Shown here: piece by piece, positions 1-42,653 of the stretch | How the letters are laid out: each line of letters opens with the position of its first letter | Numbering within the stretch: position 1 is the stretch's first letter | Origin: a virus | Strand: one strand, 5' to 3' | DNA length: 42,653 nucleotides | Virus record (IMG/VR): IMGVR_UViG_3300002059_000001 | Location: 1-42,653 of that record | Notes under the pieces: generated by a model | The model's database searches: none | What the model was told of the DNA's origin: nothing | What the model saw: only the letters and a program-made list of their open reading frames with translations | Made by a program: the position numbers and the translations under genes

Positions 1-49
1 TCAAGATCCGGACAGAAGAGGACGCCGAAGTCGAGGCTTGGAAGTTCCG
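1..49. repeat. 49-bp terminal direct repeat, copy 1 (circular-assembly overlap)
   Basis: Bases 1-49 (tcaagatccggacagaagagg...cttggaagttccg) are repeated exactly as bases 42605-42653. The repeat lies inside an open reading frame. Confidence 0.97.
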
Positions 50-6190: not shown

Positions 6191-7416
6191 AATTAGACCT
6201 TAAATCAGTGGGGGGTTATCTTAAATCGAAGCTCTCTTTAAGGGATCCCGAACATTGGGAAGAGAAGGGATCTCGGTCCCACACCGGGGAGGCCGTCACG
6301 CCGGCGAAGATAGAGGGTCTCGGGACAGTTTGGGCTTGTGTTAATTTGCTCGCCGGGACTGTCGGGTCTCTTCCGCTCGGCGTCTATCGTAAGAACGGCC
6401 GCCTCTTGCAAGCTGTCCCGGAACACCCTCTTTACAATATCCTCGGCTTCTCTCCGAACTTCGATCTCTCGGCCGACGAGTTTATCGAGTTCCTCGAGGC
6501 TTCCCTCGAGCTCCGCGGGAACTCATACGCGGAGATTAAGCGGAACACCGCGGGAAGAATTATCGCGCTGGATCCTATCATGCCGGACACAATGTCCACC
6601 CGGAGAACCTCTCGAGGACAAATCGAGTACCGATGGACGGACGAGAACGGGAAGCGTCGGGTCGAGGTAGACGAGAAGATATGGCATATCCGCGGACCTT
6701 TCGGAACCGCGCTCGGAGGAAAGTCCCCTCTTACAGTTTGCCGGAATGCCTTCGGCTCCGCGCTCGCTAGTGAGAAGGCCGCCGGCTCTGTCTTCGCGAA
6801 CGGCCTCGCTACTGTCGGCGGCGTCAAGATGGACAAGGCTCTAAACAAGAAACAAAGGAAAGAACTCCGCGAACACTTGCGCGAAGATTACTCCGGCGCG
6901 AAGAATGCCGGCACTCCTATGATTCTCGATAATGGTCTCGATTGGGTCTCGATCTCTCTCTCTCCGGAGGATTTACAGCTTCTCACTTCTCGGAAGTATA
7001 GCGTCGTCGAGATATGCCGGATCTTCGGCGTTCCCCCTCACCTCGTACAGCATACCGAAGGGAATACGACGCTCGGCTCTTCTATCAGCGAACAAACCCT
7101 CGGCTTCGAGAAGTTCTCTCTTCGCCGTCGATTAAAGAGGATCGAAGGCGCGGCCGAGAAGCAGCTCCTTACGCCGGAGGAATATGCGTCCGGTCTTCGG
7201 ATTAAATTTAATATCGACGGCTTGCTCCGCGCGGATCCGAAGGGCCGCGGCGAGTATTACGAAAAAGGTCTCAGGAACGGATATTTAACAATTAACGAGG
7301 TTCGCGAAAAAGAGAACCTTCCACCTGTAGAGGGCGGCGACATGCCTCGCGTCCAGATGCAAAACGTTCTCCTAGTCGACGCCGACGGGAACATAACCAA
7401 ACCGGGAGACGAGTAA
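6187..7416 (+). CDS. portal protein (HK97 family)
   Basis: 409 aa with an ATGA overlap with terL. Conserved ..CRIFGVPPHLV.. portal motif. Gene order is TerL-portal-protease-capsid. Confidence 0.92.
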   Translation: MKLDLKSVGGYLKSKLSLRDPEHWEEKGSRSHTGEAVTPAKIEGLGTVWACVNLLAGTVGSLPLGVYRKNGRLLQAVPEHPLYNILGFSPNFDLSADEFIEFLEASLELRGNSYAEIKRNTAGRIIALDPIMPDTMSTRRTSRGQIEYRWTDENGKRRVEVDEKIWHIRGPFGTALGGKSPLTVCRNAFGSALASEKAAGSVFANGLATVGGVKMDKALNKKQRKELREHLREDYSGAKNAGTPMILDNGLDWVSISLSPEDLQLLTSRKYSVVEICRIFGVPPHLVQHTEGNTTLGSSISEQTLGFEKFSLRRRLKRIEGAAEKQLLTPEEYASGLRIKFNIDGLLRADPKGRGEYYEKGLRNGYLTINEVREKENLPPVEGGDMPRVQMQNVLLVDADGNITKPGDE

Positions 7417-8087
7417 TGTCTAAACAGTTCCACAGTTCCAAGCTCGAGCTTAAAGTCGACGACGACGGCGTCGGCGAGTTCGAAGGTTACGCCGCGAAGT
7501 TTGGCGAGGTAGACCTCGGAGGAGATACTATCGTCGCCGGCGCGTTTAAGAAGACAATCGCCGACGCCGCAAAGCAGGGGAGAATTATTCCGTTCCTTAA
7601 CATGCACGATCAAAGCGACGTTATGGGCGGCTTCCATGAAATGAAGGAGGATAATTACGGCTTATTCGTTAAAGGCCGCATTATTCCGGATCTCTCGGCC
7701 GCCGCGACGAAGACCTATAGGCTTCTTAAGTCGGGCCTCTCGACCGCTCTGTCTATTGGATATCGAGTTCCCGAAGGAGGGGCTTCCAAAAAAGACGGGA
7801 TTCGAACTATTAAAGAACTCATGCTCTACGAGGTTTCGTATGTCGGCGTCGGGATGGATCCCTTCGCGCGCGTTACGGCGACGAAGAGCATAACAGATAT
7901 TCGCGCCAAGCTCGCGGCCGGGGACCGGCTCACAGTTCGCGAATGGGAGGTCGTTCTTAAAGGGATGAACCTCACAAACTCAGAGGCCGAGCGCGCAGTT
8001 CGGGTTAATCTGAAAACAGGCGGGGGGGATCCTCGCAACTCTAAAGACGACGAAGTTCTATCGGAGCTTAAGCGTTTAATTAACTAG
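7416..8087 (+). CDS. prohead serine protease (HK97 / S78 family)
   Basis: FEGYAAKFGEVDLGGDTIVAGAFKKT, the NMHD His motif and the LSIGYR Ser motif. TAATG overlap with the portal gene. Confidence 0.9.
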   Translation: MSKQFHSSKLELKVDDDGVGEFEGYAAKFGEVDLGGDTIVAGAFKKTIADAAKQGRIIPFLNMHDQSDVMGGFHEMKEDNYGLFVKGRIIPDLSAAATKTYRLLKSGLSTALSIGYRVPEGGASKKDGIRTIKELMLYEVSYVGVGMDPFARVTATKSITDIRAKLAAGDRLTVREWEVVLKGMNLTNSEAERAVRVNLKTGGGDPRNSKDDEVLSELKRLIN

Positions 8088-8126
8088 GGTATAGGAACCC
8101 GCTCACTTTTGAAAAGGAGACATGAT

Positions 8127-9506
8127 ATGTCCCGCAAATTCCTACTTTCGGCTTCGGCCGCTATTTTGTTCTCGGCCGCTATGTTTGCGCCGGCGACAGC
8201 TTCCACCGCTCCCGAGCTCGCCGTTACGTTTAACGTCGACGGTCTCGTTAAAGGCGTCGCGCGCCTATACGACGCTCCCACTCTCGAATTGAAAGACGGC
8301 GAAGACGGCGAAACAAAGACCGGCGCAGAACTCGCGAACGAGATTAAGACCGCTCTCGACAAGTCTGTCGACGAAGTAAAAGAGCTCGCTCAAAAAGCTG
8401 TCGCTATGGCGGAGAGCGGCGAGAAGGCTCGTAAGGGCGAGACTGAAAAAGTCGACAACGCTGTTAAAACTATGAACGAACTTAAGACCGCGTTCGACGC
8501 ATTCCAACAAAAGATGGAACGCGACGGATCCGAAGAGAAGACGTTCAAAACCGCCGGCGAGCGGTTTATCGACTCGGACGAGTTTAAGGCTTTGACGGAC
8601 GGAACGGTTACGCAAGGCCGGGTCGCCTCTGTCGGCATGAAGACGATTACGTCTCTAACGACCGACGCCGACGGCTCCGCCGGAGATCTTATCCGGACCG
8701 AGCGCGTTCAATCTCAAATGCCAACGCTCCCGGATCGTCGTATGACTGTCCGAGATCTTATCGCTCCGGGACAGACGAACTCGAACGCTATCGAGTATGT
8801 TCAAGAAACAGGCTTTACGAATAACGCCGACATGGTCGCGGAAGCGACGCTTAAGCCCGAGTCTTCTATGAAGTTCGATCTTAAGACGGCTCCGGTTCGT
8901 AAAATTGCACACTGGATGCTCGCTTCCGCCGAAGTCCTAAACGACGCTCCCGGCCTTCGGTCCATGATCGATTATCGTCTACGCTACGGCGTCGATTATA
9001 AGGAAGAGGCGCAACTCCTTAACGGCGACGGTACAGGACAGAACCTATTCGGGATCCGTCCACAGGCTACGGATTACGCCGCGGCCTTCGCTGTCGACGC
9101 CGAGACCGAGATCGATAAGGTCCGCCTTGCTATCTTGCAAGCTGTCCTCGCCGAATATCCAGCGACCGGGATCGTTATTCATCCTACAGATTGGGCGAAG
9201 ATCGAAACCACGAAGGACACACAGGGTCGCTACATTATCGGCAATCCGCAGGGGACACTCTCTCCGACATTGTGGAGCCTTCCTGTCGTCGCCACTCAGG
9301 CGATGGAAGTCGATAAGTTCCTCGTCGGCGCGTTCCGTCAAGGCGCGCAGGTCTTCGACCGTATGGCGTCTACGGTTATGGTCTCGACCGAGGACTCCGA
9401 TAACTTCCGGAAGAACCTCGTAACGATCCTCGCCGAATCTCGGTTGGCTCTTACGGTTTATCGTCCGGAAGCCTTCGTCGAAGGCGACTTCGGAAACGTC
9501 GCTTAA
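8127..9506 (+). CDS. major capsid protein (HK97 fold) with N-terminal prodomain
   Basis: The ATG at 8127 lies 6 nt after AAGGAGA; the track start at 8109 is an in-frame TTG. A coiled-coil delta-like region is followed by capsid-type sequence (..LLNGDGTGQNLFGI.., ..HPTDWAKIE..). Confidence 0.92.
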   Translation: MSRKFLLSASAAILFSAAMFAPATASTAPELAVTFNVDGLVKGVARLYDAPTLELKDGEDGETKTGAELANEIKTALDKSVDEVKELAQKAVAMAESGEKARKGETEKVDNAVKTMNELKTAFDAFQQKMERDGSEEKTFKTAGERFIDSDEFKALTDGTVTQGRVASVGMKTITSLTTDADGSAGDLIRTERVQSQMPTLPDRRMTVRDLIAPGQTNSNAIEYVQETGFTNNADMVAEATLKPESSMKFDLKTAPVRKIAHWMLASAEVLNDAPGLRSMIDYRLRYGVDYKEEAQLLNGDGTGQNLFGIRPQATDYAAAFAVDAETEIDKVRLAILQAVLAEYPATGIVIHPTDWAKIETTKDTQGRYIIGNPQGTLSPTLWSLPVVATQAMEVDKFLVGAFRQGAQVFDRMASTVMVSTEDSDNFRKNLVTILAESRLALTVYRPEAFVEGDFGNVA

Positions 9507-17544: not shown

Positions 17545-20500
17545 ATGGCAAAAGCCCTAAAGACTATCGGAAAAATAGCGTCGGTTGCGGCGGTCGTTCT
17601 TGCTTTCGTTCCCGGTGGACAGCCGTTCGCCGCGGCCGCTTCCGCTATAGCCGGCGTCGCTAATGCTGGAGCTTCACTCCTCGCACAGCCGGAGCCGATA
17701 GGAGGGGAGAGTACAAACGTTTTAATAGATAAGTCCGCTCCGACTCCTTATGTTATGGGCCGAACATTGACAGGCGGCGCGCTCGTACACGACGCCGGCT
17801 ACGGTTCCGACTATAAAAAAATTCCGAACCCTAATAGATCTATGGTGTTCGTCTATTCGGATTGCGGTCCAGTGCAAGAGATCGAAGCCTTATACGCCGA
17901 CGGAGCCTCGGTAGGAAGCGGCGGCGAGATTGGCGGATATTACGACGAGCGTATGCACTACGATAAGCTCTCCGGCTCTCGACCAGAGTCCCGCGCGCTC
18001 TCTGGAAATCAAGGAACAATCCCGGATTGGGGCTCTAGCTATAAATTATCCGGGAAGGCTTCCGGTCTCGTAACTATGAGATGGGATAAGAATCAAGAGG
18101 TCTACGCCGCGGGAACCCCGGACTTCGCGGCCTTGATTAAAGGCGTTCGAGTTTACTCTATTCGCGACGACAGCACATATCCGGGGGGCTCCGGCTCGTG
18201 CCGGCTCGGGGACGAGACGACTTACATCTATAGCGAGAACCCGGCCGACCATGCCATAACATATCTTTACGGCCGGTATGAGCTTGGCGAGCGGATCTTC
18301 GGCGTCGGGAAATCTGTCGACGGGATAGATCTTCCGGCCTTTGTCGAGTGGGCGAATGTTTGCGACGCTAATAACTGGAAAGTCGGCGGCGTAATGTATG
18401 AACCAGCCGACAAGTGGAACAATCTTAAGGTTATTATGCAAACTGGATCCGCTCGTCCTGTCCATAATAACGGACAGCTCTCCGTCGTGTTTGATGCGCC
18501 TAAAGTTCCTCTCGCTGTTTTCACAGAAGACGACCTAGCGAACGGAGATATAACGGTCCCGTCGACTAGAACCTTCCGGAATAGAATTAATTCAATTATA
18601 CCTATCTTCCGTTCAGTCTCTCACGAGTGGCAATTTATTTCCGGGACAGCCGTCACGGTTTCGGATTACGTTACAGAAGACGGAGAGATAAAGAGATCCG
18701 AACGTAAATACTCTCTTTGTCAGGATGCGACTCACGGCGCGCAGCTCGCCGCTTATGAGGTCGTTAATTCTCGAGAGCTCGAGGGGATAACCCTTCCGTT
18801 CAAACCGAAGATCTTACCGTATGGTTCCGGCGACGCTATCGAATTAAATATGCCGAACCTCGGCCTCGTCGGAACGTTCGTTATTCAGACGCGCTCGTTC
18901 AATCCTCTAAATGCTATTACGACCGTCACAGTTAAAACCGAGACCGCGGCGAAACATAGCTTCGCGTTAGGAGCTTCCACAACAGTTCCGACGGCCCCTA
19001 CGCTTATGTTCGGAGCGGACCTTGATAGGATATCTTACAACGCGACCGGACAGGCCGCTATCAACGAAACACAAGTGCAAACTTCGTGGACGAACGGGAT
19101 CCAGATCGACGGAATTTCCGCGTCCGGAACTGCGACCGTAAACGTCTCAGGACATAGTCGAGTATATCCCGACGAGACAGTAACGGTTCAAAGCGGACAG
19201 CTTGTCGGATTGGTGCAAGATACCGACTACGTTATCTATTATGATGATATTCCTCGAGAAGGCGGCGCGGTCGGTTACTCGGCTATTCCCTCGTCGGATT
19301 ATTTAAACGATCCCGACGGCGGTAAAGGCCGACACTTCGTCGGATATATAAAAACGCCGAAGACGGACAGCGCCGCGAATACTGTCGGCGTTCCGCCCAT
19401 CCCTCCTAATGTTGTTCCCGAAACAGTCCCTAACGCTCTCGGCCTTGGCGGCGTCGTCGCGGAAGAGATTATTCAGAACATATCTACGAACGCCTCTTCG
19501 GTCGCGGCATTACAGGCGACCTATGGATCTACGGCTTCCGCCGCCGCTTCCGCCGCTTCCGCCGCGGCCGCACAGTCCGCCGCCGAGAGCGCTCAAAGTT
19601 TATCAGAGGCCGCCCAGTCCGCCGCCGAGACCGCCGCCGCTTCCGCCGATAGTTTCCAAAGTTCCGCGGCCGCAAGTGCTACCTCGGCGTCGACTTCGGC
19701 TTCGGCTTCTGAGACCGCTAAAAATATAGCGACGGCCGCACAGACCGCAGCGTCCGGATCTGCTACAGCGGCGGAGCAACATTCCTCCTCCGCGTCTATC
19801 TCGGCCTCGACGGCGTCTCAGTCCACCGCCGCCGGCCGTCCCTCGACCTTTGAAAGCGGCGGAGAATATTTTGTTTCCGCGCCTCTGTCAGACCCTATAA
19901 CGGGCTCTCCGGCCGACAATTCCTCGAACATTGTTTCGGGATCCGACACCGACGGAAGCTATCTTTCGAACACAAGCTCCGGCGACGCTCCGTCCATCTT
20001 ACAAAGGCTCGGGATCCCTTACGTTCCCGGAGAGAAGTATCGTGTCTCGACGAGGTTTAAGGTTCTGTCCGGATCTCCTTCGTCTGTAATTATCAGAGGT
20101 CGCCGGATTAATGGGGATTATACTCAGTCTCTCTCCGCGCATGGATTAACCGTCCCTCTCGCTTCGACAACGGTCGACGATTACGTCTTCGAATTTACAG
20201 CGAGTCAGGCGAGGTTCGACGAGGGAACGAGAATAGTAAGAGCCGAGGTTGATATAAACCCGGACGAGAACCAAGTCCTCGCCGTTTACAGTTTAAACAT
20301 AGAAAACATTACGGCCGTCGCGGCCGCCGAAGATAGCGCTACGGCCGCCGCTTCGAGCGCTTCCGCCGCCGCCGCGTCTGAGACCTCGGCCGGACAAAGC
20401 GCAAGCGCGGCTCAAACGTCCGAGACCGCCGCCGAGACCTCTCGCTCCGCCGCGGAGACTTCCGAGATAAACGCCGCGACGTCCGAAACCTCGGCCGCCG

Positions 20501-23500
20501 CTTCGTCCGCCGCCGCCGCGACGTCTGAGACGAACGCCGCTAACTCCGCGTCCTCGGCCGGTGGATCCGCGTCTTCCGCGACGTCCTCCGCTTCCGCCGC
20601 GGAAACCAGCGCTTCCGCCGCCGCGACGAGTGCTTCCGCCGCGGAACAATCTTCCGTAGATGCGACGACCGCACAGTCCGCCGCACAGTCCGCCGCGACC
20701 GCCTCGGCTTCGAGCGCTTCCGCCGCGTCCGCTTCTGAGACCGCCGCGGGGCAAAGCGCGACTTCCGCCCAAACCGCGCGGACTTCGGCCGAGACCGCCG
20801 CCGCGAATGCGTCGACAAGTGAGGGGAACGCCGCGTCCTCTGAGACGAGCGCGCAGGGATCCGCCGCTTCCGCCGCTTCGAGTGAAACGGCCGCGGCTAA
20901 CTCCGCAACCGACGCCGGGAACTCTTCTTCGGCCGCGGCGACGTCCGCGACAGAGGCCGCTACGTCCGCGACAGAATCGGAAACCTCGGCTTCCGCGTCG
21001 GAACAATCTTCGATTAATGCGGCGACGTCTGAGACGAACGCCGCTTCTTCCGCTACGGCCGCGTCGTCGAGCGCTTCTTCGGCCGCCGCCTCTGAGACCG
21101 CCGCCGGGCAAAGCGCTAACGCCGCCTCGTCAAGTGAGACGGCCGCGGCGACCTCTGCTTCTAACGCGGCCAACTCTGAGACTTCGGCCGCGACGTCTGA
21201 GACGAACGCCGCCGGCTCGGCGAGTTCTGCGACGTCTTCCGCCTCGAGCGCCGCTTCGAGTGCCGGGAGCGCTGGATCTTCCGCCTCGGCCGCGGCTAAC
21301 TCCGCAACTCAAGCCGCGACCTCCGCGACCGACGCCGGCGTCTCTTCTTCGGCCGCCGCCGCTTCCGCCGTTAATGCGTCCACAGCGCAAGAGTTATCCG
21401 AGGCCGCGACGCGGGAGGCCCGACCTTCTACCTTTGAATCTGGCGGGAAATACTTCACCTCTTCCACTTTATCTCCTCCCGAAACCGCCGCGAATGCCGA
21501 CGCTAATTCTTCCATAGAAGCCGGCTCCGATGCCGACGGATATTTTTTGAAGATAAACGACCCGGACAAACAGCCGTCGATCTTTCAGAAGTTCGGGGTC
21601 TCGTATAATCCCGGAGATAAATATCGGGTATCTGTCCGTCTCAAATCTCTAACCGGAACGCCGTCTCGTGTAATTCTCCGGGGTCGGAGATTAAGCGGAG
21701 ATTATGCTACATCTTTAGGCACAGATGGTCTTATCGTTACTGAAACCGCCACGACGACGGCGACGGATTATGTCTTCGAGTTTTCAGCAACTCAGGCTCT
21801 CTACGATACAGGCGTTCGTATATTGAAAGCCGAGGTCGAGGCTAACCCTCTCGAAGAGCAAACGGTCGCGATATATAAACTTGATATCGAAAATATTACG
21901 GCGCAATCCGAAGCCGAAGACAGCGCCGCCGCTTCCGCTTCGAGCGCTTCTTCCGCCGCCGCTTCTGAGACGGCCGCAGGACAAAGCGCCAACGCCGCCC
22001 AAACCTCTGAGACGGCCGCGTCTACCTCTGCCGCCAATGCCTCCGCCTCGGAAGGTAACGCGGCGACCTCAGAAACGAATGCGGCCGGATCCTCGTCCGC
22101 CGCCGCCGCGTCTGAGAGCGTCGCCGCGACGGCCGCGGCCAATGCCTCGACCTCTGAAACAAACGCCGCCGCCTCTGAGACGAGCGCCGCGTCTTCCGCG
22201 TCCGCCGCCGCCTCGAGTGCTTCGTCGGCTTCGGCCTCGGAGACAGCGGCCGGGCAATTCTCGAACGCCGCTTCGAGTTCTGAGACCGCCGCTTCGACGT
22301 CCGCCGCCAATGCCGCCGCTAGTTCTTCCAGCGCCGCGACCTCCGCGACGAACGCCGCCGGCTCCGCTTCGGCCGCAAGTTCAAGTCAAACCTTAAGCGC
22401 CGCCGCGGCCGATGCAGCGGAAGCCGCTGTCGTCGATACGCTCCCGTCTACTTTTGAAAACCCCGACGCTTACTTCTCCCATAACTTAGGAGGAGCTCCT
22501 TCCGCGATGCCGTCTCTAACTGGCGGTTCGAATTGGGAGGCCATAACGGACCCCACAGAGGGGCCGGGAGTTGCCGTTACACCGGGGGAGACCGGAGATT
22601 GGTTAAGTCAAAAAGGTGTCCTTCCGGCTCTTCCGGGACACACATATAGATTAACTGCGAGGATTAAGGAGACCGCGACTCCTACGAACGATAGAGTTCA
22701 AGTTAGAATGTGGCGATTGGACGCTAGTTATTCGACTTTAGGGCAAGCCGCAAAGACCGCGACCCTAATCTTAAACTCTGTCGAAGAGGTTACGCACGAG
22801 TTCACTTTATCGACTGGACATTACAATTCGGGCGCGCGGTTTATTCGAGCGGCTCTGTCGGTAAACCTGCTTTCCAACGGCTCAAACGATGGATTGTGGG
22901 AAATCTATATGCTTAAGCTCGAGGATATCACAGATCTAAAAACCCTCGAGGCGACCGTTAATAGTAACGCGACCGTCTCCGCAAATAATACGACTTCGAT
23001 AGCTTCCTTAAGTAATACGGTTACGGCGCAGGGAAATTCCCTTTCGGGTCTATCCGCTTCCGCGTCCGCGACACAGACCGCCGTCGATGATATCGAGCAA
23101 GGCCTCCTCGCGTCCATTGGGTTTCGGGTTAAAGCGGGAACAAGCGGAGCGGAGTTTGAATTGTCCGCGCTCGACGGCGGAGATATATCCGGATCGGTCG
23201 CGCGAATTTCCGCGGCCGCTATTATACTCGACGGAACTCTCTCGGCCGCTCACTTCGCCGATGGGTCGATCTTTAATATCGCCGAGGAGGATATCGCGCT
23301 CTCGGCTTATCTAAGCCCGTCGACAGAATACACCGTTCTCTCGAAAGCCTTTACTAGCGCCGGCGGGAAGGTTCGTTTCGATATCAACATAGGAGGCCAT
23401 CTTGGAAACACCGGCGGACCTAGTGTCTCCGACATGCATAGCCAGACTCGACAGCTTGTTTGCAAGTTATATCGAGACAACGTTTTTATAGGTAATTATT

Positions 23501-23733
23501 TTTCTGGAACTTTCTCCACGGTCTACGACGACGTCGCGGATAAGTATGTTAAGAATGGAATTGAAACTATATCTTTTATTGCGACCGATAATCCAGCCGC
23601 CGGGACATATACTTATGATATCCGTCTTATTGAGACCGTGATTATTGAGAACACAATCTCGGGGAATAACGTCGGGGATCCAAGAATAAATATCTCTTCG
23701 GGTTACGCCTATATTACCGAGTTCAACGATTAG
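17545..23733 (+). CDS. host specificity / central tail fibre protein (2062 aa): J/GTA g15-like N-terminus, three [Ser/Ala heptad rod + CBM-like domain] modules, J-like C-terminus
   Basis: The first ~640 aa and the last ~260 aa look like lambda J / GTA g15-type tip proteins. The interior is described under findings. Confidence 0.9.
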   Translation: MAKALKTIGKIASVAAVVLAFVPGGQPFAAAASAIAGVANAGASLLAQPEPIGGESTNVLIDKSAPTPYVMGRTLTGGALVHDAGYGSDYKKIPNPNRSMVFVYSDCGPVQEIEALYADGASVGSGGEIGGYYDERMHYDKLSGSRPESRALSGNQGTIPDWGSSYKLSGKASGLVTMRWDKNQEVYAAGTPDFAALIKGVRVYSIRDDSTYPGGSGSCRLGDETTYIYSENPADHAITYLYGRYELGERIFGVGKSVDGIDLPAFVEWANVCDANNWKVGGVMYEPADKWNNLKVIMQTGSARPVHNNGQLSVVFDAPKVPLAVFTEDDLANGDITVPSTRTFRNRINSIIPIFRSVSHEWQFISGTAVTVSDYVTEDGEIKRSERKYSLCQDATHGAQLAAYEVVNSRELEGITLPFKPKILPYGSGDAIELNMPNLGLVGTFVIQTRSFNPLNAITTVTVKTETAAKHSFALGASTTVPTAPTLMFGADLDRISYNATGQAAINETQVQTSWTNGIQIDGISASGTATVNVSGHSRVYPDETVTVQSGQLVGLVQDTDYVIYYDDIPREGGAVGYSAIPSSDYLNDPDGGKGRHFVGYIKTPKTDSAANTVGVPPIPPNVVPETVPNALGLGGVVAEEIIQNISTNASSVAALQATYGSTASAAASAASAAAAQSAAESAQSLSEAAQSAAETAAASADSFQSSAAASATSASTSASASETAKNIATAAQTAASGSATAAEQHSSSASISASTASQSTAAGRPSTFESGGEYFVSAPLSDPITGSPADNSSNIVSGSDTDGSYLSNTSSGDAPSILQRLGIPYVPGEKYRVSTRFKVLSGSPSSVIIRGRRINGDYTQSLSAHGLTVPLASTTVDDYVFEFTASQARFDEGTRIVRAEVDINPDENQVLAVYSLNIENITAVAAAEDSATAAASSASAAAASETSAGQSASAAQTSETAAETSRSAAETSEINAATSETSAAASSAAAATSETNAANSASSAGGSASSATSSASAAETSASAAATSASAAEQSSVDATTAQSAAQSAATASASSASAASASETAAGQSATSAQTARTSAETAAANASTSEGNAASSETSAQGSAASAASSETAAANSATDAGNSSSAAATSATEAATSATESETSASASEQSSINAATSETNAASSATAASSSASSAAASETAAGQSANAASSSETAAATSASNAANSETSAATSETNAAGSASSATSSASSAASSAGSAGSSASAAANSATQAATSATDAGVSSSAAAASAVNASTAQELSEAATREARPSTFESGGKYFTSSTLSPPETAANADANSSIEAGSDADGYFLKINDPDKQPSIFQKFGVSYNPGDKYRVSVRLKSLTGTPSRVILRGRRLSGDYATSLGTDGLIVTETATTTATDYVFEFSATQALYDTGVRILKAEVEANPLEEQTVAIYKLDIENITAQSEAEDSAAASASSASSAAASETAAGQSANAAQTSETAASTSAANASASEGNAATSETNAAGSSSAAAASESVAATAAANASTSETNAAASETSAASSASAAASSASSASASETAAGQFSNAASSSETAASTSAANAAASSSSAATSATNAAGSASAASSSQTLSAAAADAAEAAVVDTLPSTFENPDAYFSHNLGGAPSAMPSLTGGSNWEAITDPTEGPGVAVTPGETGDWLSQKGVLPALPGHTYRLTARIKETATPTNDRVQVRMWRLDASYSTLGQAAKTATLILNSVEEVTHEFTLSTGHYNSGARFIRAALSVNLLSNGSNDGLWEIYMLKLEDITDLKTLEATVNSNATVSANNTTSIASLSNTVTAQGNSLSGLSASASATQTAVDDIEQGLLASIGFRVKAGTSGAEFELSALDGGDISGSVARISAAAIILDGTLSAAHFADGSIFNIAEEDIALSAYLSPSTEYTVLSKAFTSAGGKVRFDINIGGHLGNTGGPSVSDMHSQTRQLVCKLYRDNVFIGNYFSGTFSTVYDDVADKYVKNGIETISFIATDNPAAGTYTYDIRLIETVIIENTISGNNVGDPRINISSGYAYITEFND
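19490..19839 (+). repeat. Ser/Ala heptad (21-nt periodic) rod 1, about 16 heptads
   Basis: STASAAA SAASAAA AQSAAES AQSLSEA AQSAAET ... STAAGRP, ending in phase at PSTFESGG. Confidence 0.85.
20321..21423 (+). repeat. Ser/Ala heptad (21-nt periodic) rod 2, about 52 uninterrupted heptads
   Basis: SATAAAS SASAAAA SETSAGQ SASAAQT SETAAET ... SAVNAST AQELSEA. Position 1 is Ser/Ala in every heptad. Position 5 is Ala in about 49 of 53. Confidence 0.9.
21907..22443 (+). repeat. Ser/Ala heptad (21-nt periodic) rod 3, about 26 heptads
   Basis: SAAASAS SASSAAA SETAAGQ SANAAQT ... SQTLSAA AADAAEA, ending in phase at PSTFEN. Confidence 0.85.
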
Positions 23734-28922: not shown

Positions 28923-28934
28923 TATTTTAGTCCC

Positions 28935-29762
28935 TTATTGGTTTTTGTGAATAGGTTTTAAGGCGATCCGAAGACCCTCGGCCGCGTTTCTTATGGCTAT
29001 AGAGAAGCTCTCGAGAGACGCTCGAAGGTGAACGAATGAGTTCCGGCGCTCTATCCCGGCTTTAATCTCCTCTCTATGGTTCCGCCGTAAGGCGAGGATA
29101 TATGTCGGCCGATAAAAGACCCTCTTGTCCTCGTCGAGGAAAGCCTCCTTCGCTGTCCACGTCGCAAGCCAACGGGAGACGCGGTCCATAAAACGGATAA
29201 ACCTCGCCGATTCGAGGAGCTCGTTCCATGCTCTCTCGAGCCGCTCCCCGGCGTCCTTAAGAGACTCAGGAGAAGAGCTCTCGTCTCGAGGTTTAGGGTG
29301 TCGTCCTGTCCACGCCGCGCTGTCGTAAACGCCGGCCGAGAGAGTCTTTCCCTTCCTCTTATCGTAGACGACTCTATCTCCCTTTGCGAAGAGATATTCT
29401 AACGGAATAGAGAACTTCTTAGCTATGAGCTTCTTCGCTTCCTCCTCGAATATCGTAGACGTCCAGTCGCTCTCGCCGAAGTTCGTAAGAGTAAAGACCG
29501 TCCGTTCCGTTCCCGGCGTCGCTAAGTCTAATCTTATATCCGCGAAGATCTTCCGGCGGAGATCCTCGGCTTGTTCGTTTATTGGGAAGGTGAAGAGCCG
29601 GTCGTATTCTCCTCGATAGATTAGTTCGTACTCTCCGGCGTTGTTCGTCGATATCATTACCGGCATATATCGCCGGATAGGATTGTCGATAATATCGGCG
29701 CAACGTCGGCCGCTATGCCCCATAGTTTGCGCGACGGTTAAAGGGTATTTATGTCCGGACAT
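28935..29762 (-). CDS. hypothetical protein (275 aa)
   Basis: Long ORF on the operon strand. Overlaps the upstream gene by 14 nt. No motif recognised. Confidence 0.6.
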   Translation of the reverse strand: MSGHKYPLTVAQTMGHSGRRCADIIDNPIRRYMPVMISTNNAGEYELIYRGEYDRLFTFPINEQAEDLRRKIFADIRLDLATPGTERTVFTLTNFGESDWTSTIFEEEAKKLIAKKFSIPLEYLFAKGDRVVYDKRKGKTLSAGVYDSAAWTGRHPKPRDESSSPESLKDAGERLERAWNELLESARFIRFMDRVSRWLATWTAKEAFLDEDKRVFYRPTYILALRRNHREEIKAGIERRNSFVHLRASLESFSIAIRNAAEGLRIALKPIHKNQ

Positions 29763-30672
29763 GATCTGTCTCCTGTTGTTTTGGGAACTCGTTGCAAATA
29801 ACGCCGTCGAGCTTTCGTCCTGCTCTCTTCTTCCCTATTTTAACCATATCGTCAGAACCGACCCTCGAGCCTCTTCTGTCGTCTATAGGGACAATCTCTC
29901 CGACATTACCGACGACACTTGCGGGAGCCCATTCTCCCCACTGTTTAAACAGGAACGGGATCCCCGCCCGGAAGCATTGGTCGCGAAGGCTTCGAAGATG
30001 CCGCGGGATAGAAGACCGAGCGTTAGGACCGCTCTCCCCGCCGGCTATAATCCAGTCGAGGCCGAGCTCGACGTGTCTTAAGGCGTGGAACCCCTCCGCG
30101 CTATCGCTAGGCGAAAGCGGTCCAGAGAAGGGAATACAGGACAAATCTATAGCGCCGAGCATAGGCTCGCAAGAAAGGAACCTTACGGCGCAATCGTGTT
30201 GAACGAGATAGGGGATATTCCTCTCGGCGACCTCCTGATTCTCGACGGTCGTTCCTAACCAGACCCGACCTTTAATCTCGTCCCAAAAGGGAGGAAGCAT
30301 TTTCTCTATATTTTGCGGCCGCTTCGTAAGGAGTAACCAGTCGAGCGACGGCGTCTTCCGGATAAGATCCCATAGGTCCGCGCGCCATTCCTCCGGAACT
30401 TGATTGTCGAACACGTCGGCGAGCGAGGCGCAGAAGACACGCTGTCTCCGACCGAACTCCGCTCCGAACTTATTCGCTTCCCGCTCCCACTTAAGAGGCT
30501 TCTTCCAGTTAGATTCGGAAGTCCGTCTCCGCGGTCCTCCCCATTCGACCGTCTTAAACCTCGCCGCTCTCTCGGCCGCGTAACAAAAGTCGCAAGCCGG
30601 GGAGATCTTCGTACACCCTTCCCACGGATTAAACGTATGGTCGGTCCATTCTATCTTGCTTTGCTCTGCCAT
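29749..30672 (-). CDS. phage Gp37/Gp68 family protein (DUF5131)
   Basis: The N-terminal KIEWTDHTFNPWEGCTKISPACDFCYA is the family hallmark. ..LLLTKRP.. and ..DWIIAGGESGP...WVRSL-like ..FLFKQWGEW also match. Confidence 0.8.
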   Translation of the reverse strand: MAEQSKIEWTDHTFNPWEGCTKISPACDFCYAAERAARFKTVEWGGPRRRTSESNWKKPLKWEREANKFGAEFGRRQRVFCASLADVFDNQVPEEWRADLWDLIRKTPSLDWLLLTKRPQNIEKMLPPFWDEIKGRVWLGTTVENQEVAERNIPYLVQHDCAVRFLSCEPMLGAIDLSCIPFSGPLSPSDSAEGFHALRHVELGLDWIIAGGESGPNARSSIPRHLRSLRDQCFRAGIPFLFKQWGEWAPASVVGNVGEIVPIDDRRGSRVGSDDMVKIGKKRAGRKLDGVICNEFPKQQETDHVRT

Positions 30673-30673
30673 A

Positions 30674-31141
30674 TTAGAGCTCCTTCTTTATCTTACTTAC
30701 GCCGACGAGCTCTTCGTTAAGGAAGAAGGCGGCTAGGTTTGGCGGGATTGCCCAGTGACTTTTAACAGGAACCCCGAAGAGGAAATGCTCGGCCGGTTCG
30801 TTTGACCGTCCTCGAGAGGTCCGGAAGTTATCCGGATATAACTCCTCGAGATCCAACGGCCGGAGACACTTAATCTCGTCGACCGTAGGTTTCGGAATAT
30901 CCGCGATAAGATCTCGAGCGGCTTTGAGTGTTTCGATTGTAAGAGGCTTTGGAGCTTCCAGCTCCTCTACGCATAGGGCCGAATTTAGGAGCCGCTCTGT
31001 CTGGTCGAGGATATCCCTCTTCGCTTCCAATGCCATAAGCTCGGCTCTCGGATCTCCGAACTTCGCTCGAATTAAGTCCTCGCCCTGTTTAAGATACGCG
31101 CGTCCAGTGTGAATTTTAACTCTATAGTCTTTCTTCGCCAT
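30674..31141 (-). CDS. hypothetical protein (155 aa)
   Basis: Operon-strand ORF. GGAGCTCTAATATGGC junction at its start. Confidence 0.6.
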   Translation of the reverse strand: MAKKDYRVKIHTGRAYLKQGEDLIRAKFGDPRAELMALEAKRDILDQTERLLNSALCVEELEAPKPLTIETLKAARDLIADIPKPTVDEIKCLRPLDLEELYPDNFRTSRGRSNEPAEHFLFGVPVKSHWAIPPNLAAFFLNEELVGVSKIKKEL

Positions 31142-31559: not shown

Positions 31560-31740
31560 GCTCTCTTGTTTCCTTCTCTATTTCGCTCTCGACGATATCG
31601 AGGAGCTCCTTAATTGAACCCCGGATATATCGGAGCCTTCGTTTATAGTGTTCGTGATGTTGCTCGGTCCGGATCCAGTATCTCCGGATCGATAGGATCT
31701 TCGCCATAATCTTACGATATTGCGCTCGGCGTTTTGTCAT
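31552..31740 (-). CDS. small basic hypothetical protein (62 aa)
   Basis: Overlapping start and stop with its neighbours. Arg/Lys/His-rich. Confidence 0.5.
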   Translation of the reverse strand: MTKRRAQYRKIMAKILSIRRYWIRTEQHHEHYKRRLRYIRGSIKELLDIVESEIEKETREHD

Positions 31741-32072
31741 TGCTTCCCCTTCTTAAGGTCTATCTTTAGGACGACGTCGAACGCCTCCCGCATTGCTTGG
31801 ATCGCGGCCGCTCCGTCGACGAAGGGCCAAGCCTCGGACCTCGCAGTATGTCGCTTCCCGACGCTCTCCTCTTCGGCCGTTAGATTATTCGGAACGAGAT
31901 TCGGGATAATGCGATAGGATCCGTCGGCGAATGTCTCCTTCTCGATATCCAGTCGACCGGGTCCGAGAGAGGATCTCGAGACAGCGAGCCGGCCGACCTC
32001 GACCGTAGATCCCGCGGAGAAGATCTCCCACTCCGCCGGCGTCATTCTATCGAGGTCGACTGGACCGCTCAC
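31737..32072 (-). CDS. hypothetical protein (111 aa)
   Basis: The GTG start forms a GTGA overlap with the upstream mini-ORF. Confidence 0.55.
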   Translation of the reverse strand: MSGPVDLDRMTPAEWEIFSAGSTVEVGRLAVSRSSLGPGRLDIEKETFADGSYRIIPNLVPNNLTAEEESVGKRHTARSEAWPFVDGAAAIQAMREAFDVVLKIDLKKGKQ

Positions 32073-32173
32073 TTCGGCCGGTCTTTCCAGCTAATGAGAG
32101 CGAGACATAGAAACGCTATCCCTCCGAGAAGTGTCCCGGTAATAACGACCGCTTGTAAGATTGTGTCTAGCAT
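32069..32173 (-). CDS. 34-aa single-TMD mini-protein (absent from the ORF track)
   Basis: MLDTILQAVVITGTLLGGIAFLCLALISWKDRPK*. TAATG overlap upstream and GTGA overlap downstream, so it exactly fills the gap between its neighbours. Confidence 0.55.
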   Translation of the reverse strand: MLDTILQAVVITGTLLGGIAFLCLALISWKDRPK

Positions 32174-32622
32174 TAGTCTTTCCTCCTCTTCACCTTCTGG
32201 ACCTCGAGGATCTTTGTGTTTGGATGGGAGGAGTTATGGACAAGCCCGATAGAGAAGAGATCTATATCCTTAAGCGTGGGTCTCGACCCTTCGCTCCTAT
32301 TGTCCTTTTTACCGACACGATACCCGATAGAGAGGTCCGACAGACTTCCCCTTTGGACAAGCATAGGGACGGCCTCGTTATTTCCGTCGAGCTCCTCTGG
32401 AATTGTGAACGATACCTTTAGTCCGATAGCGTCCTCTTCCATGTCCGCGACCTTCGCGACGACACCGTTCTTCGAGTCGAACCCGTATAGAACGGGGAGA
32501 TCTTCCCCTGCGAGGAAGTTAGCGACCGCCTCCTTAAAGGCTCCCGGTTCGATTATATCTCCGTCCGAGTAAGGCGTCCGAAAGATAGCCGCATATCCTG
32601 TTATTTTGAGTTTGTTAATCAT
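32173..32622 (-). CDS. HK97/S78 prohead-protease paralog lacking the catalytic His (pseudo-protease)
   Basis: KITGYAAIFRTPYSDGDIIEPGAFKEA...LPVLYGFDSKNG...EEDAIGLKV...LSDLSIGYRV aligns with the genuine protease at 7416 (FEGYAAKFGEVDLGGDTIVAGAFKKT...IPFLNMHDQSDV...KEDNYGLFV...STALSIGYRV). The H of NMHD is replaced by F. Confidence 0.7.
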   Translation of the reverse strand: MINKLKITGYAAIFRTPYSDGDIIEPGAFKEAVANFLAGEDLPVLYGFDSKNGVVAKVADMEEDAIGLKVSFTIPEELDGNNEAVPMLVQRGSLSDLSIGYRVGKKDNRSEGSRPTLKDIDLFSIGLVHNSSHPNTKILEVQKVKRRKD

Positions 32623-33199
32623 GTTCTTTTTTCCTTAAGTTGTTCCTCGACTGGATCTTCTGTCCTTTAGGCCAGCGAGAAGGGCCATTCCCTAGGCGAG
32701 ATCTACCGCCTATAGCCGGCTTCTTCTTTTTCTTAGCTTTACTCCCGTCCTTCGATATCCCTCTGTACGAGGCTCTAAGACGGTTTATCTTCGCCTCTCG
32801 AGGCGTTTCGATCTTCGCAGCTATGAGAGCGTTACAGGCGTAATGCATAGGAGCGCAGTTCTCCGGCGTGTGTCCGCCGTCGTGGGCATAGTTCCGGAGG
32901 TGTCCGAGGACGCAGCTCTCGGGATGGATCCCGGCCTTCGTCCAGTCCACCCGGCGGAAGCAAGCGGGACAAGTCCAGTCCGCGGCGACATATATCTCGA
33001 TAGGATCGAAGTCGACGATCTCTATCATAGGCCGGCGGAGATCCTTCGGGAGCTTCTTATTCAAAGCCTTGCGCGCGACGTTAATCTTCCGCGCTCTCCC
33101 CATATGCGCGCGGCCGTTCTTCCGGAGACGGTCGAGAGTCGCCTTCGGGATATCCTCGAGGAGGACCGGGAGCATAGGGTCGAGGTGTCGGGGAATCAT
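32615..33199 (-). CDS. HNH-type nuclease with a basic C-terminal tail
   Basis: CPACFRRVDW...CVLGHLRNYAHDGGHTPENCAPMHYACNALIAAK gives Cys pairs plus H..N..H/N spacing. Overlaps the pseudo-protease start (ATGATTAA). Confidence 0.6.
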   Translation of the reverse strand: MIPRHLDPMLPVLLEDIPKATLDRLRKNGRAHMGRARKINVARKALNKKLPKDLRRPMIEIVDFDPIEIYVAADWTCPACFRRVDWTKAGIHPESCVLGHLRNYAHDGGHTPENCAPMHYACNALIAAKIETPREAKINRLRASYRGISKDGSKAKKKKKPAIGGRSRLGNGPSRWPKGQKIQSRNNLRKKEHD

Positions 33200-33714
33200 G
33201 AGAAATAAACGAGGCCGTCTTTATTGGCGACTTCCCGAAGTCCTTCGACCCAATCCTGATAATAACTCTTAAATCTATCACCTTCGATTCCTTCGGGAAC
33301 AAGATCGAAGATCCGGCCTCTGTTGTCGAGGAAGTCCTGATATAGCTTCCCTATCGCAGGGTCTAAGATAAAGCCTTCACAGTCTGAGAAGTGGATTAAC
33401 TCATAGAATGGACCTTTGCTGTAATCCCTCCACGCTTTCTCGGCCGAGCCATAGCCGGCGTATCTAGCGAGATCGTCTCTCCACCTATTGTAAGAACTAT
33501 AAGCTCGAGAAGGGAGGTCCGTCTCGGCGGCTGTCACATGGAAGACACCCTCCGTTAATTTGGGAATATGCGGGAAGTGAAGGCCTTGGAGCTCCACCTC
33601 TCCCGGCGAGATCCAGATAGCCTCGTTCTCTTCCGCCCATTCTTGAAGGCACTCGGTCCCCTCCGGAGCGGCCGCGGGTTTCATGCTATGATAAAAAGTT
33701 ACGTCGAGTCCCAT
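33196..33714 (-). CDS. hypothetical protein (172 aa)
   Basis: ATGA overlap. Contains ..YSSYNRWRDDLARYAGY.. and ..ELIHFSDCEGFI.. motifs that I do not recognise with confidence. Confidence 0.6.
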   Translation of the reverse strand: MGLDVTFYHSMKPAAAPEGTECLQEWAEENEAIWISPGEVELQGLHFPHIPKLTEGVFHVTAAETDLPSRAYSSYNRWRDDLARYAGYGSAEKAWRDYSKGPFYELIHFSDCEGFILDPAIGKLYQDFLDNRGRIFDLVPEGIEGDRFKSYYQDWVEGLREVANKDGLVYFS

Positions 33715-39083: not shown

Positions 39084-39608
39084 ATGGGAAAAAAAACCAA
39101 CACCGACGACATGCGGGGGCATAATCTCCCGCCTCGGGAAGTTCACGAAGGGTTCCTTAAACGGCTTCTCGTTATCGAGGCCGACAAGCAATCCCAAATG
39201 GCTAAGAACCGCGCGGGGCTTAAATCCTTCGCGGACGATAAAGAAGAAGTTATGAAGGAGGCCAAGGCCGCCGGCGTTTCAGTGAAGGTTCTAAAGCACC
39301 TATTCAAGGTCGAGAACTTCCTCGACAAAAACGTAACGAACGCCGCGCAACGTCTCGACGTCGATATCGCCGACGAGGTCGTCGCCGTAATGGAGCAAAC
39401 GGAAATGTTTTCTTATGCGAAGACAGGCGTCCACCCGTCGGCCGACATTGCGGCCGCGGCGAAGAAAGCTCCGGACGACGGAACCGACGAGATCCAGAAG
39501 CAGAAGCTCGAAGACGCTAAAGCCTTCGACGAGGATCCAGCTCTAAAGAAGAGCTCTACTCCGAAGGGACCGTCCGTGAACGATTCTAAAGCGAAGGCGG
39601 ACGCATAA
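39084..39608 (+). CDS. hypothetical protein; central segment faintly DUF2312/GapR-like
   Basis: FLKRLLVIEADKQSQ...DDKEEVMKEAKAAGVSVKVLKHLFK resembles the DUF2312 pattern (ERIERLEEEK..D.K.VY.EAK..GFD.K.LR). Weak evidence. Confidence 0.5.
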   Translation: MGKKTNTDDMRGHNLPPREVHEGFLKRLLVIEADKQSQMAKNRAGLKSFADDKEEVMKEAKAAGVSVKVLKHLFKVENFLDKNVTNAAQRLDVDIADEVVAVMEQTEMFSYAKTGVHPSADIAAAAKKAPDDGTDEIQKQKLEDAKAFDEDPALKKSSTPKGPSVNDSKAKADA

Positions 39609-41925: not shown

Positions 41926-42653
41926 ATGAGTATCGCAGTAACGAGCCTCATTCTGTCCCGTAAGGTCGGCGGTCCGACCCGGAAGATCATTCTCCTAATG
42001 CTTGGCGATTGCGCTAACGACGACGGCTCCGGGATATGGCCTAGCAAGTCGACAATCGCCGCGAAGACAGAGGTCCACCGCGACACAGTTAAAAAACACA
42101 TTCGGGAAATGTGTAAGGATGGTCTATTAGTGAAGGTCGGCCGTCGACCGTGTTCGAATGGCTATACGACCGAATACTCGCTCGACGTCGCGAAGTTATT
42201 CTCGTTCCCGACGACGGGGGGAATTTTACACCCCGTAGGCGGAGAATCACCGGGAGGAGGTGACACAGACCCCGAGGACATGGGGGCCGACGACACCCCA
42301 AACCATAATAAACCGTCAATTACCCACCCGTCGGCGGAAGAGGTATTCGAAAAGCTATGGAAAGAAGTTCTAGCTATAACTCCGAACGAGATTAAAGGTC
42401 GACACGCTAAGAAGCCTTGTCTCGCCAAATTTAAGAAGATCTCGTCCCGTAAACGGGAACCTATAGCCGCGTCTCGCATAGCTCACGCCGTTTTATGGTA
42501 TTACGATCAAGATCCGCAGAAGAAGGACGACCGGCGATTTATGAAGGGTCTCGGTCCGGTCCTAAATGGCGAGGCGTTCGCGAATTACCTCGATAAGGGA
42601 CCGTTCAAGATCCGGACAGAAGAGGACGCCGAAGTCGAGGCTTGGAAGTTCCG
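41926..42653 (+). CDS. winged-helix replication-initiator-like protein, 5' part (wraps to 50..191)
   Basis: ATG at 41926 after gaggag. KIILLMLGDCANDDGSGIWPSKSTIAAKTEVHRDTVKKHIREMCKDGLLVKV is a typical phage HTH initiator/DnaD-like N-domain. The frame is open to the window end, so the ORF is absent from the track. Confidence 0.7.
   Translation, partial: MSIAVTSLILSRKVGGPTRKIILLMLGDCANDDGSGIWPSKSTIAAKTEVHRDTVKKHIREMCKDGLLVKVGRRPCSNGYTTEYSLDVAKLFSFPTTGGILHPVGGESPGGGDTDPEDMGADDTPNHNKPSITHPSAEEVFEKLWKEVLAITPNEIKGRHAKKPCLAKFKKISSRKREPIAASRIAHAVLWYYDQDPQKKDDRRFMKGLGPVLNGEAFANYLDKGPFKIRTEEDAEVEAWKF
42605..42653. repeat. 49-bp terminal direct repeat, copy 2
   Basis: Identical to bases 1-49. Confidence 0.97.

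Follow-up and report, generated by a model that had tools for sequence, protein, structure and literature searches.

Proteases of capsid maturation are seen as packaged enzymes dedicated to assembly. What, then, is a protein with the fold of such a protease doing among the recombination and replication genes of a phage? The question is raised by IMG/VR virus record IMGVR_UViG_3300002059_000001, positions 1 to 42,653, a stretch of 42,653 nucleotides that is called the window in its entirety. An initial annotation, made from the letters alone, had drawn attention to an open reading frame (ORF) on the minus strand as a second HK97-type prohead protease paralog, set apart from the head genes and with its catalytic His replaced. 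This ORF is referred to here as pp, for pseudo-protease. The comparisons show pp to be a domain-only and, as predicted from its residues, catalytically dead member of the HK97-type (S78) prohead-protease family. How far has the catalytic site been lost? Where did the gene come from? What could a protease fold that does not cut be kept for?

Family, catalytic site and selection

The pp product matches the Pfam family PF04586 (Peptidase_S78) over residues 6-139 (E=8.1e-14, 52.5 bits, gathering cut-off 21) and PHROG 80 (head maturation protease, E=6e-21), and a Pfam scan at E<=1 returned only Peptidase_S78, with no match to the S80/gp21-like branch. BLASTP aligns it with the resident prohead protease encoded at 7416..8087(+) at 29% identity over 137 residues (E=7e-12). 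An AlphaFold2 model built from 120 homologues has a mean predicted local distance difference test (pLDDT) score of 93 and a predicted template modelling (pTM) score of 0.87. When the model is compared by Foldseek, predicted phage prohead proteases in BFVD are found at template modelling (TM) scores of 0.7-0.83, and in the PDB it matches herpesvirus assemblins at E of about 1e-5 (human cytomegalovirus (HCMV) protease, E=9e-6) as well as T4 gp21 (5jbl, TM 0.6), which resembles pp at the fold level only (9-11% identity). A PDB sequence search with pp gave nothing but spurious armadillo-repeat matches. Like the HK97 gp4-type S78 proteases, to which it is linked by sequence homology and predicted fold, pp carries the blocks GYAxxF, PGAF, EDxxGL, IG[YF] and DLx. 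The proposal of a second S78-fold protein in this genome is thus borne out by Pfam, PHROG and the structure model, which had been suggested as a check, and the whole-length similarity to the resident enzyme is significant and not due to chance.

When 1.84 billion representative proteins were searched exhaustively with pp by phmmer, 1815 S78 homologues were obtained at E<=1e-3, and close similarity is confined to two of them: P0004 (137 aa, 45% identity) and P0005 (140 aa, 36% identity). A profile of these three sequences run against 5.8 billion proteins recovered only the same three at 231-239 bits, with the next match at 98 bits. All three members of the clade are domain-only proteins that begin directly with the GYAAIF strand, and in each of them the His site is occupied by Phe. 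A word-indexed homologue search with pp returned pp itself and two weak matches; no relatives were found in IMG/VR scans with pp, the HNH protein encoded upstream and the 111-aa protein encoded downstream (w111), nor in a GTDB genome scan, and neither megablast of the early region nor tblastn of the HNH protein and w111 gave a match among the INPHARED phages. Two metagenome loci of the Joint Genome Institute that matched the clade profile were rejected as false positives, being a chance AAIFRTPYIDG within a protein of 433 aa from an organism of high GC content. When pp itself was used for tblastn against INPHARED, only ordinary head proteases were found, at less than 60% identity, in 223 places in 221 records, and therefore two isolated phages have two S78-like places each.

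To locate the catalytic residues, the numbering of HK97 gp4 was verified on the gp4 sequence itself and gp4 was then aligned with pp, and a residue census was made in a 268-sequence alignment of all retrieved homologues. The catalytic His column is His in 263 of the 268 sequences, Phe being found only in pp and its two relatives and Asn in two others. At the catalytic Ser position, Ser is present in 266/268, pp included (Ser98), and Ala is present in both pp relatives. The acid of the E-x-S motif is Glu or Asp in 264/268 and Ser or Ala in the pp clade, and the Ser that follows it (261/268) is Gly in all three clade members, Gly126 in pp. No other group in the census has lost residues in more than one catalytic column. 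This conserved acid, Glu141 in gp4, is presumed to be the third catalytic residue on the basis of its column conservation and the Ser-to-acid spacing of 26-27 residues. In HCMV protease the spacing between Ser132 and His157 is 25. The same value separates S153 and D178 in SPN3US gp245 (PMC5694885). In two further homologues, P0091 (360 aa) and P0113 (235 aa), the catalytic His is replaced by Asn, with Ser and Glu kept; they may represent independent catalytic losses within the S78 family.

The protein ends with the protease domain. About 60-64 C-terminal residues of the resident enzyme and about 60 of gp4 are absent, as are about 20 N-terminal residues of both. The C-terminal part of the protease reportedly has a targeting role. 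The differences from the gp4-type enzymes are thus His to Phe, Glu to Ser, the adjacent Ser to Gly, and the lack of an N-terminal leader and a C-terminal part; pp is almost certainly catalytically dead. The initial annotation is therefore right that the catalytic His is replaced, gp4 His65 corresponding to Phe48 with no His at the catalytic position, although the loss is wider than it had described, extending to the acid (Ser124) and the following Ser (Gly126). Its statement that the Ser motif is retained holds for pp and not for the clade, as both relatives have Ala; the absence of the C-terminal part (149 aa against 223 aa) is confirmed, and the inactivity that it had called probable can be put more firmly, since His, acid and following Ser are all replaced.

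Is this a gene in decay? Across the clade 41 positions are invariant, F48 included, and they are dense in residues 1-29 (17/29) and 117-141 (12/25). The latter segment is the strand pair that formerly bore Glu-x-Ser, and it now reads DLF[SA]IG...PSHxNT[KR]I in the clade. With His turned into an invariant Phe, Glu into Ser or Ala and the next Ser into an invariant Gly, and with invariant positions concentrated in 117-141, the active site looks rebuilt rather than randomly decayed. Proportions of nonsynonymous (pN) and synonymous (pS) differences and nonsynonymous rates (dN), in a crude Nei-Gojobori comparison in which pS is saturated, are 0.40-0.44, 0.72-0.77 and 0.58-0.66, respectively, for pp across the clade; between the window and the contig L005, which also carries a pp homologue, the HNH gene has a dN of 0.23 and w111 one of 0.37. 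Since pN is below pS, coding constraint on pp persists, and since its dN is above that of its flanks, pp evolves 2-3 times faster than its neighbours. Contig pairs within a lineage have no, or almost no, differing site inside pp.

The origin of pp can be approached through its ranking of homologues. By phmmer score against pp, the resident protease stands at rank 202 of 268 with 37 bits, while unrelated proteases score 58-62 bits, and therefore pp is no recent duplicate of the phage's own gene. A recent in-genome duplication is rejected on this ranking and on the 29% identity, and pp is to be taken as a captured or ancient S78 family member. The word paralog is thus appropriate in the family sense and not in the sense of a duplicate, the resident enzyme being among the more distant homologues of pp.

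An exchangeable cassette in the recombination and replication operon

The leftward operon that contains pp encodes a DNA methylase, a helix-turn-helix protein, an exonuclease, a DUF3310 protein, a RecT-like protein, a 172-aa ORF, the HNH-like protein, pp, a mini-ORF, w111, a DUF5131 protein and a single-stranded DNA-binding protein. This recombination and replication operon is read as early from its gene content. As the initial annotation had pointed out, pp lies among these genes on the strand opposite the head module; it is placed between the HNH-like gene and w111 and outside the portal-protease-capsid position in which gp4-type genes are found. Its start codon, an ATG with an AAGGAA box 8 nt upstream, is inside the last codons of the 194-aa HNH-like gene, and the two genes share an 8-nt overlap with the sequence ATGATTAA. 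The pp stop and the start of the 34-aa mini-ORF share 1 nt (TAATG), and a further overlap (GTGA) joins the mini-ORF to the GTG start of the following gene. The mini-ORF product is one hydrophobic stretch, with Kyte-Doolittle values of up to 2.5 in a 19-residue window, and it has been called as a gene on public contigs too. Both the overlap with the HNH stop and the membrane-type mini-ORF after pp had been noted at the outset and are as described. No promoter-like or terminator-like sites were detected inside the pp and mini-ORF cassette, and the gene arrangement shows pp to be a putatively co-transcribed and translationally coupled member of the operon.

Is pp a fixed part of this operon? Two relatives much closer than the other pp-bearing lineages, contigs L009, from Logan SRR24985672, and L010, were found by a w111 search (w111, 88% aa identity). 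By blastn, the aligned parts of the operon are 76-88% identical in nucleotide sequence, and for the DNA of the HNH gene the identity is 82% with L009 and 88% with L010. The homology ends at window position 32616 (L009) or 32625 (L010), which is the HNH stop/pp start, and resumes at 32075 (L009) or 32080 (L010), directly before the w111 start. In place of the intervening segment each relative has a short ORF, 72 aa in L009 and 69 aa in L010, each of which is coupled to the HNH stop codon. The cassette has a GC content of 50.5%, against 56.2% for the HNH gene and 59.2% for w111. Since the relatives carry unrelated ORFs at the same junction, pp is dispensable for the backbone life cycle, and slot replacement together with the low GC content marks the slot as hypervariable and pp with the mini-ORF as an exchangeable accessory cassette within it. 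Judged from this comparison, the cassette is an accessory element outside the core replication or head-assembly programme.

The pp gene is found in three lineages, and w111 adjoins it in all of them. In the L005/L006 lineage the order is HNH (72% aa identity), pp and w111 (57% aa identity); the translational coupling of pp to HNH is kept, and no transmembrane mini-ORF is adjacent. In the L002-L004 lineage, a small hydrophobic ORF precedes pp, which is followed after 280 bp by w111. This hydrophobic ORF and the mini-ORF of the window are alike in character, but they have no significant sequence similarity and do not lie on the same side of pp. Translation of the first ~75 bases of L002 gives FFFQAEDGIRD..., and we take this to be an adapter-derived assembly artefact. 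Whether pp and its HNH neighbour co-occur had been proposed as a check: HNH does adjoin pp in L005/L006, but it is also found beside unrelated ORFs in L009 and L010. A functional tie of pp to w111 or HNH is accordingly rejected, as both flanks persist beside other cassettes.

Possible roles of the pseudo-protease

On balance we lean, if only slightly, towards the view that pp is an optional protein of an accessory cassette, a dead S78-fold binder that acts early on a host factor or on a component of a competitor. Such a protein would keep the fold and the peptide-binding architecture of a capsid protease and would be unable to cut, and, having no C-terminal targeting part, it would not be packaged into proheads. 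Since cutting and the targeting part are both missing, it would most likely work as a cytoplasmic non-catalytic binder. Its partner would be either a factor of the host, for example a sensor or effector of immunity, or part of a competing HK97-like phage or element, and pp would sequester or block this partner early in infection. A host or competitor partner seems most likely because pp sits in a swap-prone place, evolves fast although under constraint and is low in GC, and a foreign partner is more likely than the phage's own head machinery because relatives dispense with pp, the resident protease is distant and pp evolves fast. The presence of unrelated small genes at the same site in relatives, a pattern typical of conflict genes, also supports a foreign partner. 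In phage genomes, counter-defence genes are known to reside in variable regions between conserved genes (abstract of PMC12373910).

A sharper form of this proposal is tentative and, as specified, rather unlikely: pp would be a conflict protein, either a mimic or titrator of an immune component or a dominant-negative poison subunit or substrate trap directed against rival head maturation. As a mimic, early pp would titrate or block a component of host immunity that recognises the prohead-protease fold or peptides of capsid maturation; as a poison subunit or substrate trap, it would act against HK97-like phages, satellites or gene-transfer-agent-like elements that compete with the phage within one cell. 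The initial annotation had listed a decoy for host defences, which pp may be. Prohead proteases are documented determinants of the activation of type I CBASS (cyclic-oligonucleotide-based antiphage signalling system).

Several points weigh against a non-catalytic binder in conflict. The function of pp is one that we infer, and its inactivity too is inferred from sequence. The clade is extremely rare: its three clusters all come from a few related metagenome sets. Neither pp nor the three alternative cassette ORFs gave a defence- or counter-defence-linked match in PADLOC, PHROG or Pfam. The comparison with L009 covers 13.8 kb, and the head modules of the relatives that lack pp lie outside the compared DNA. 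Finally, the sole published prohead protease that triggers immunity is that of phage Bas13, acting on type I CBASS through its C-terminal scaffold domain; since this domain is absent from pp, the CBASS precedent gives no direct support to a decoy consisting of the catalytic domain.

What else could pp do? The most obvious partner is the phage's own prohead protease or head assembly, which pp might regulate or inhibit as a dead subunit of a heterooligomer or as an occupant of the substrate site, so that premature cleavage would be prevented or assembly assisted. The two proteins have the same fold, T4 gp21 is reported to be oligomeric (pentameric), herpesvirus assemblins act as dimers, and dead paralogues commonly regulate their active counterparts, prozyme being an example. 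Nevertheless, this role is unlikely, as close relatives carry unrelated ORFs instead and can dispense with pp, which is only 29% identical to a resident enzyme ranked 202/268, has no capsid-targeting C-terminus, is located in the recombination and replication operon apart from the head genes, and evolves faster than its neighbours. A regulator or inhibitor of the real protease and a scaffold-like factor, both of which the initial annotation had put forward, are disfavoured by the same observation, the replacement of pp by unrelated small ORFs at the exact junctions in L009 and L010. Alternatively, pp and the 34-aa transmembrane peptide might together form an exclusion or abortive module in which pp senses peptides of a co-infecting HK97-like phage or satellite and the membrane peptide is the effector or anchor. 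The swapping of the two as one translationally coupled cassette and the hydrophobic ORF that overlaps the pp start in the L002/L003 lineage would fit such a module, but the L005/L006 lineage has no adjacent mini-ORF, the two known mini-ORFs are dissimilar and lie on opposite sides of pp, no integrase-sized ORF is present in the ORF map of the window, whose operon is of lytic type, and PADLOC gave no match; we regard this module, too, as improbable.

Two further explanations dispense with a binding partner. If pp were a decaying remnant of a captured head-module gene without present function, the lost catalytic residues, the missing C-terminus, the rarity of the clade, the dispensability of the gene in relatives and its low GC content would all be expected. 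A remnant is, however, difficult to reconcile with intact ORFs of similar length in three lineages at mutual identities of only 37-44%, with pN well below pS, with an invariant Phe at the His site and the clade-specific motifs DLF[SA]IG and PSHxNT[KR]I, with the HNH coupling kept in the L005 lineage and with a high-confidence fold model, and we consider it distinctly unlikely. The opposite idea, that pp is still an active protease through non-canonical residues such as Ser98 with His133 or His129, is hardly credible. Ser98 is indeed retained in pp and His133 is invariant in the clade, but the column of His133 is not clade-specific (N 172/268, H 19/268); this candidate was rejected, since the Ser position is occupied by Ala in both relatives and since neither the His nor the Glu nor the second Ser of the family motif has been kept. 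The early non-catalytic binder of a foreign partner therefore remains the reading to which we give preference.

Comparison with known systems and the rest of the genome

The initial annotation knew of no described function for such a paralog. Short, diverged prohead-protease paralogues have in fact been reported in phiKZ-like jumbo phages, namely SPN3US gp117, 201phi2-1 gp206 (145 aa) and PhiPA3 gp143 (136 aa), which the authors in 2017 called unprecedented and to which no function was assigned there (PMC5694885), so that the statement holds for function and not for the existence of such genes. Like pp, these are second, short (~140 aa), C-terminally truncated genes beside a real protease, and their catalytic His is not aligned; unlike pp, they belong to the S80/T4 gp21-like branch, keep Ser and Asp, and are conserved across the phage group and not shown to be an exchangeable cassette. 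In our literature search, neither a pseudo-protease of the S78 type nor the occurrence of such a gene as an exchangeable early cassette was found described. With regard to its location, the pp slot resembles the accessory regions of phages in its conserved flanks, differing small genes, lower GC content, fast evolution and place in a recombination and replication operon, but unlike in regions for counter-defence or host takeover its occupants match no known defence or counter-defence family examined. An analogy, and only an analogy, may also be drawn with pseudoenzymes such as the pseudo-caspase FLIP and the iRhom pseudoproteases, in which a protease fold is kept under selection while catalysis is lost; their folds and cellular contexts are unrelated to those of pp.

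It would appear from pp that a gene of the structural module can be recycled into an accessory function, its fold being captured, stripped, selected and traded as a cassette. If the conflict-protein reading is true, pp would be the first instance of a tailed phage turning a structural-maturation enzyme into a non-catalytic weapon. If the partner is an immune sensor or a rival assembly machinery, pp would represent a new class of phage conflict protein and would hint at what the short protease paralogues of jumbo phages do. The finding has limited practical reach, as the clade is very rare and both phage and host are uncultured.

The window has a GC content of 54.5% and an exact 49-bp direct repeat at 1..49 and 42605..42653, and it is therefore a circularly closed assembly and a complete genome of ~42.6 kb. 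It derives from metagenome ENA (European Nucleotide Archive) ERZ27298444, and an identical phage is present in Logan SRR4188649. The head module has the canonical order TerL, portal, S78 protease, capsid. The Phage_capsid domain of the major capsid protein begins late (Table 1), and the long N-terminal, delta- or scaffold-like region before it is the probable substrate of the resident protease. An alphaproteobacterial host is hinted at by a 174-aa protein with a sub-threshold GapR-like DNA-binding domain and by the hosts of the best phage matches of pp in INPHARED, which include phages of Azospirillum, Paracoccus, Labrenzia, Rhizobium and Bradyrhizobium.

Table 1. Positions of pp, its cassette and other features (window coordinates unless a contig is named)
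Feature	Position	Strand	Remarks
pp, pseudo-protease	32173..32622	(-)	149 aa; S78/HK97-type prohead-protease fold, predicted dismantled catalytic site, no C-terminal extension
Phe48, codon TTC	32479..32481	(-)	catalytic His position (HK97 gp4 His65, FFNH)
Ser98 codon	32329..32331	(-)	catalytic Ser position (HK97 gp4 Ser114, GMSVGF); Ala in both relatives
Ser124 codon	32251..32253	(-)	conserved-acid position (HK97 gp4 Glu141, REIS), presumed third catalytic residue
Exchangeable cassette, pp + mini-ORF	32076..32615		~540 bp; no homology in close relatives L009 and L010 (blastn)
34-aa hydrophobic mini-ORF	32069..32173	(-)	single transmembrane-like stretch; coupled to pp (TAATG) and next gene (GTGA); inside the non-homologous segment
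HNH-like nuclease	32615..33199	(-)	194 aa; PHROG 338 E=4.8e-9; Pfam HNH below threshold, 14.1 bits; conserved upstream flank
w111	31737..32072	(-)	111 aa, function unassigned; conserved downstream flank; adjoins pp in all three pp lineages, present also in relatives without pp
L009 slot occupant, 72-aa Cys-rich ORF	L009 7688..7906		two Cys pairs, CC..C...C..C, zinc-ribbon-like
L010 slot occupant, 69-aa ORF	L010 205..414		unrelated to the L009 72-aa ORF and to pp
Small hydrophobic ORF ...LFIGTGGAAVVTFAGLICGEYKDEI	L002 3..155 / L003 1..78		overlaps the start of pp homologue P0004
172-aa ORF	33196..33714	(-)	function unassigned; between RecT-like and HNH genes; GC 51.1%; absent from L009 (236-bp gap)
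Third variable block	28923..31139	(-)	DUF5131 gene 29749..30672, 155-aa ORF, 275-aa ORF; no blastn homology in L009
Resident prohead protease	7416..8087	(+)	223 aa; His, Ser and Glu intact; PF04586 80.9 bits; between portal and major capsid genes
Major capsid protein	8109..9506	(+)	465 aa; Phage_capsid domain from residue 192 only
Single 2062-aa ORF	17545..23733	(+)	tail region; ~15% of coding capacity
174-aa protein	39084..39608	(+)	GapR-like domain, E=4e-4, 20.2 bits, cut-off 22.6

The operon varies at other positions as well. The interval between the RecT-like and HNH genes, with its 172-aa ORF, appears to be a second variable accessory slot beside that of pp. The 172-aa ORF, w111, the mini-ORF and the slot occupants of L009 and L010 gave no PADLOC or PHROG match, and the first two gave no Pfam match either. 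At the third variable block L009 has two 81-aa ORFs between 140-aa and 277-aa genes. A final observation concerns an isolated phage: A0A6M9YZZ5, a short uncharacterised protein (122 aa) of Vibrio phage River4 in BFVD, matches the pp model in fold (TM 0.63/0.74) at 17% identity and, judged from the predicted structures, may be a further domain-only protease look-alike.

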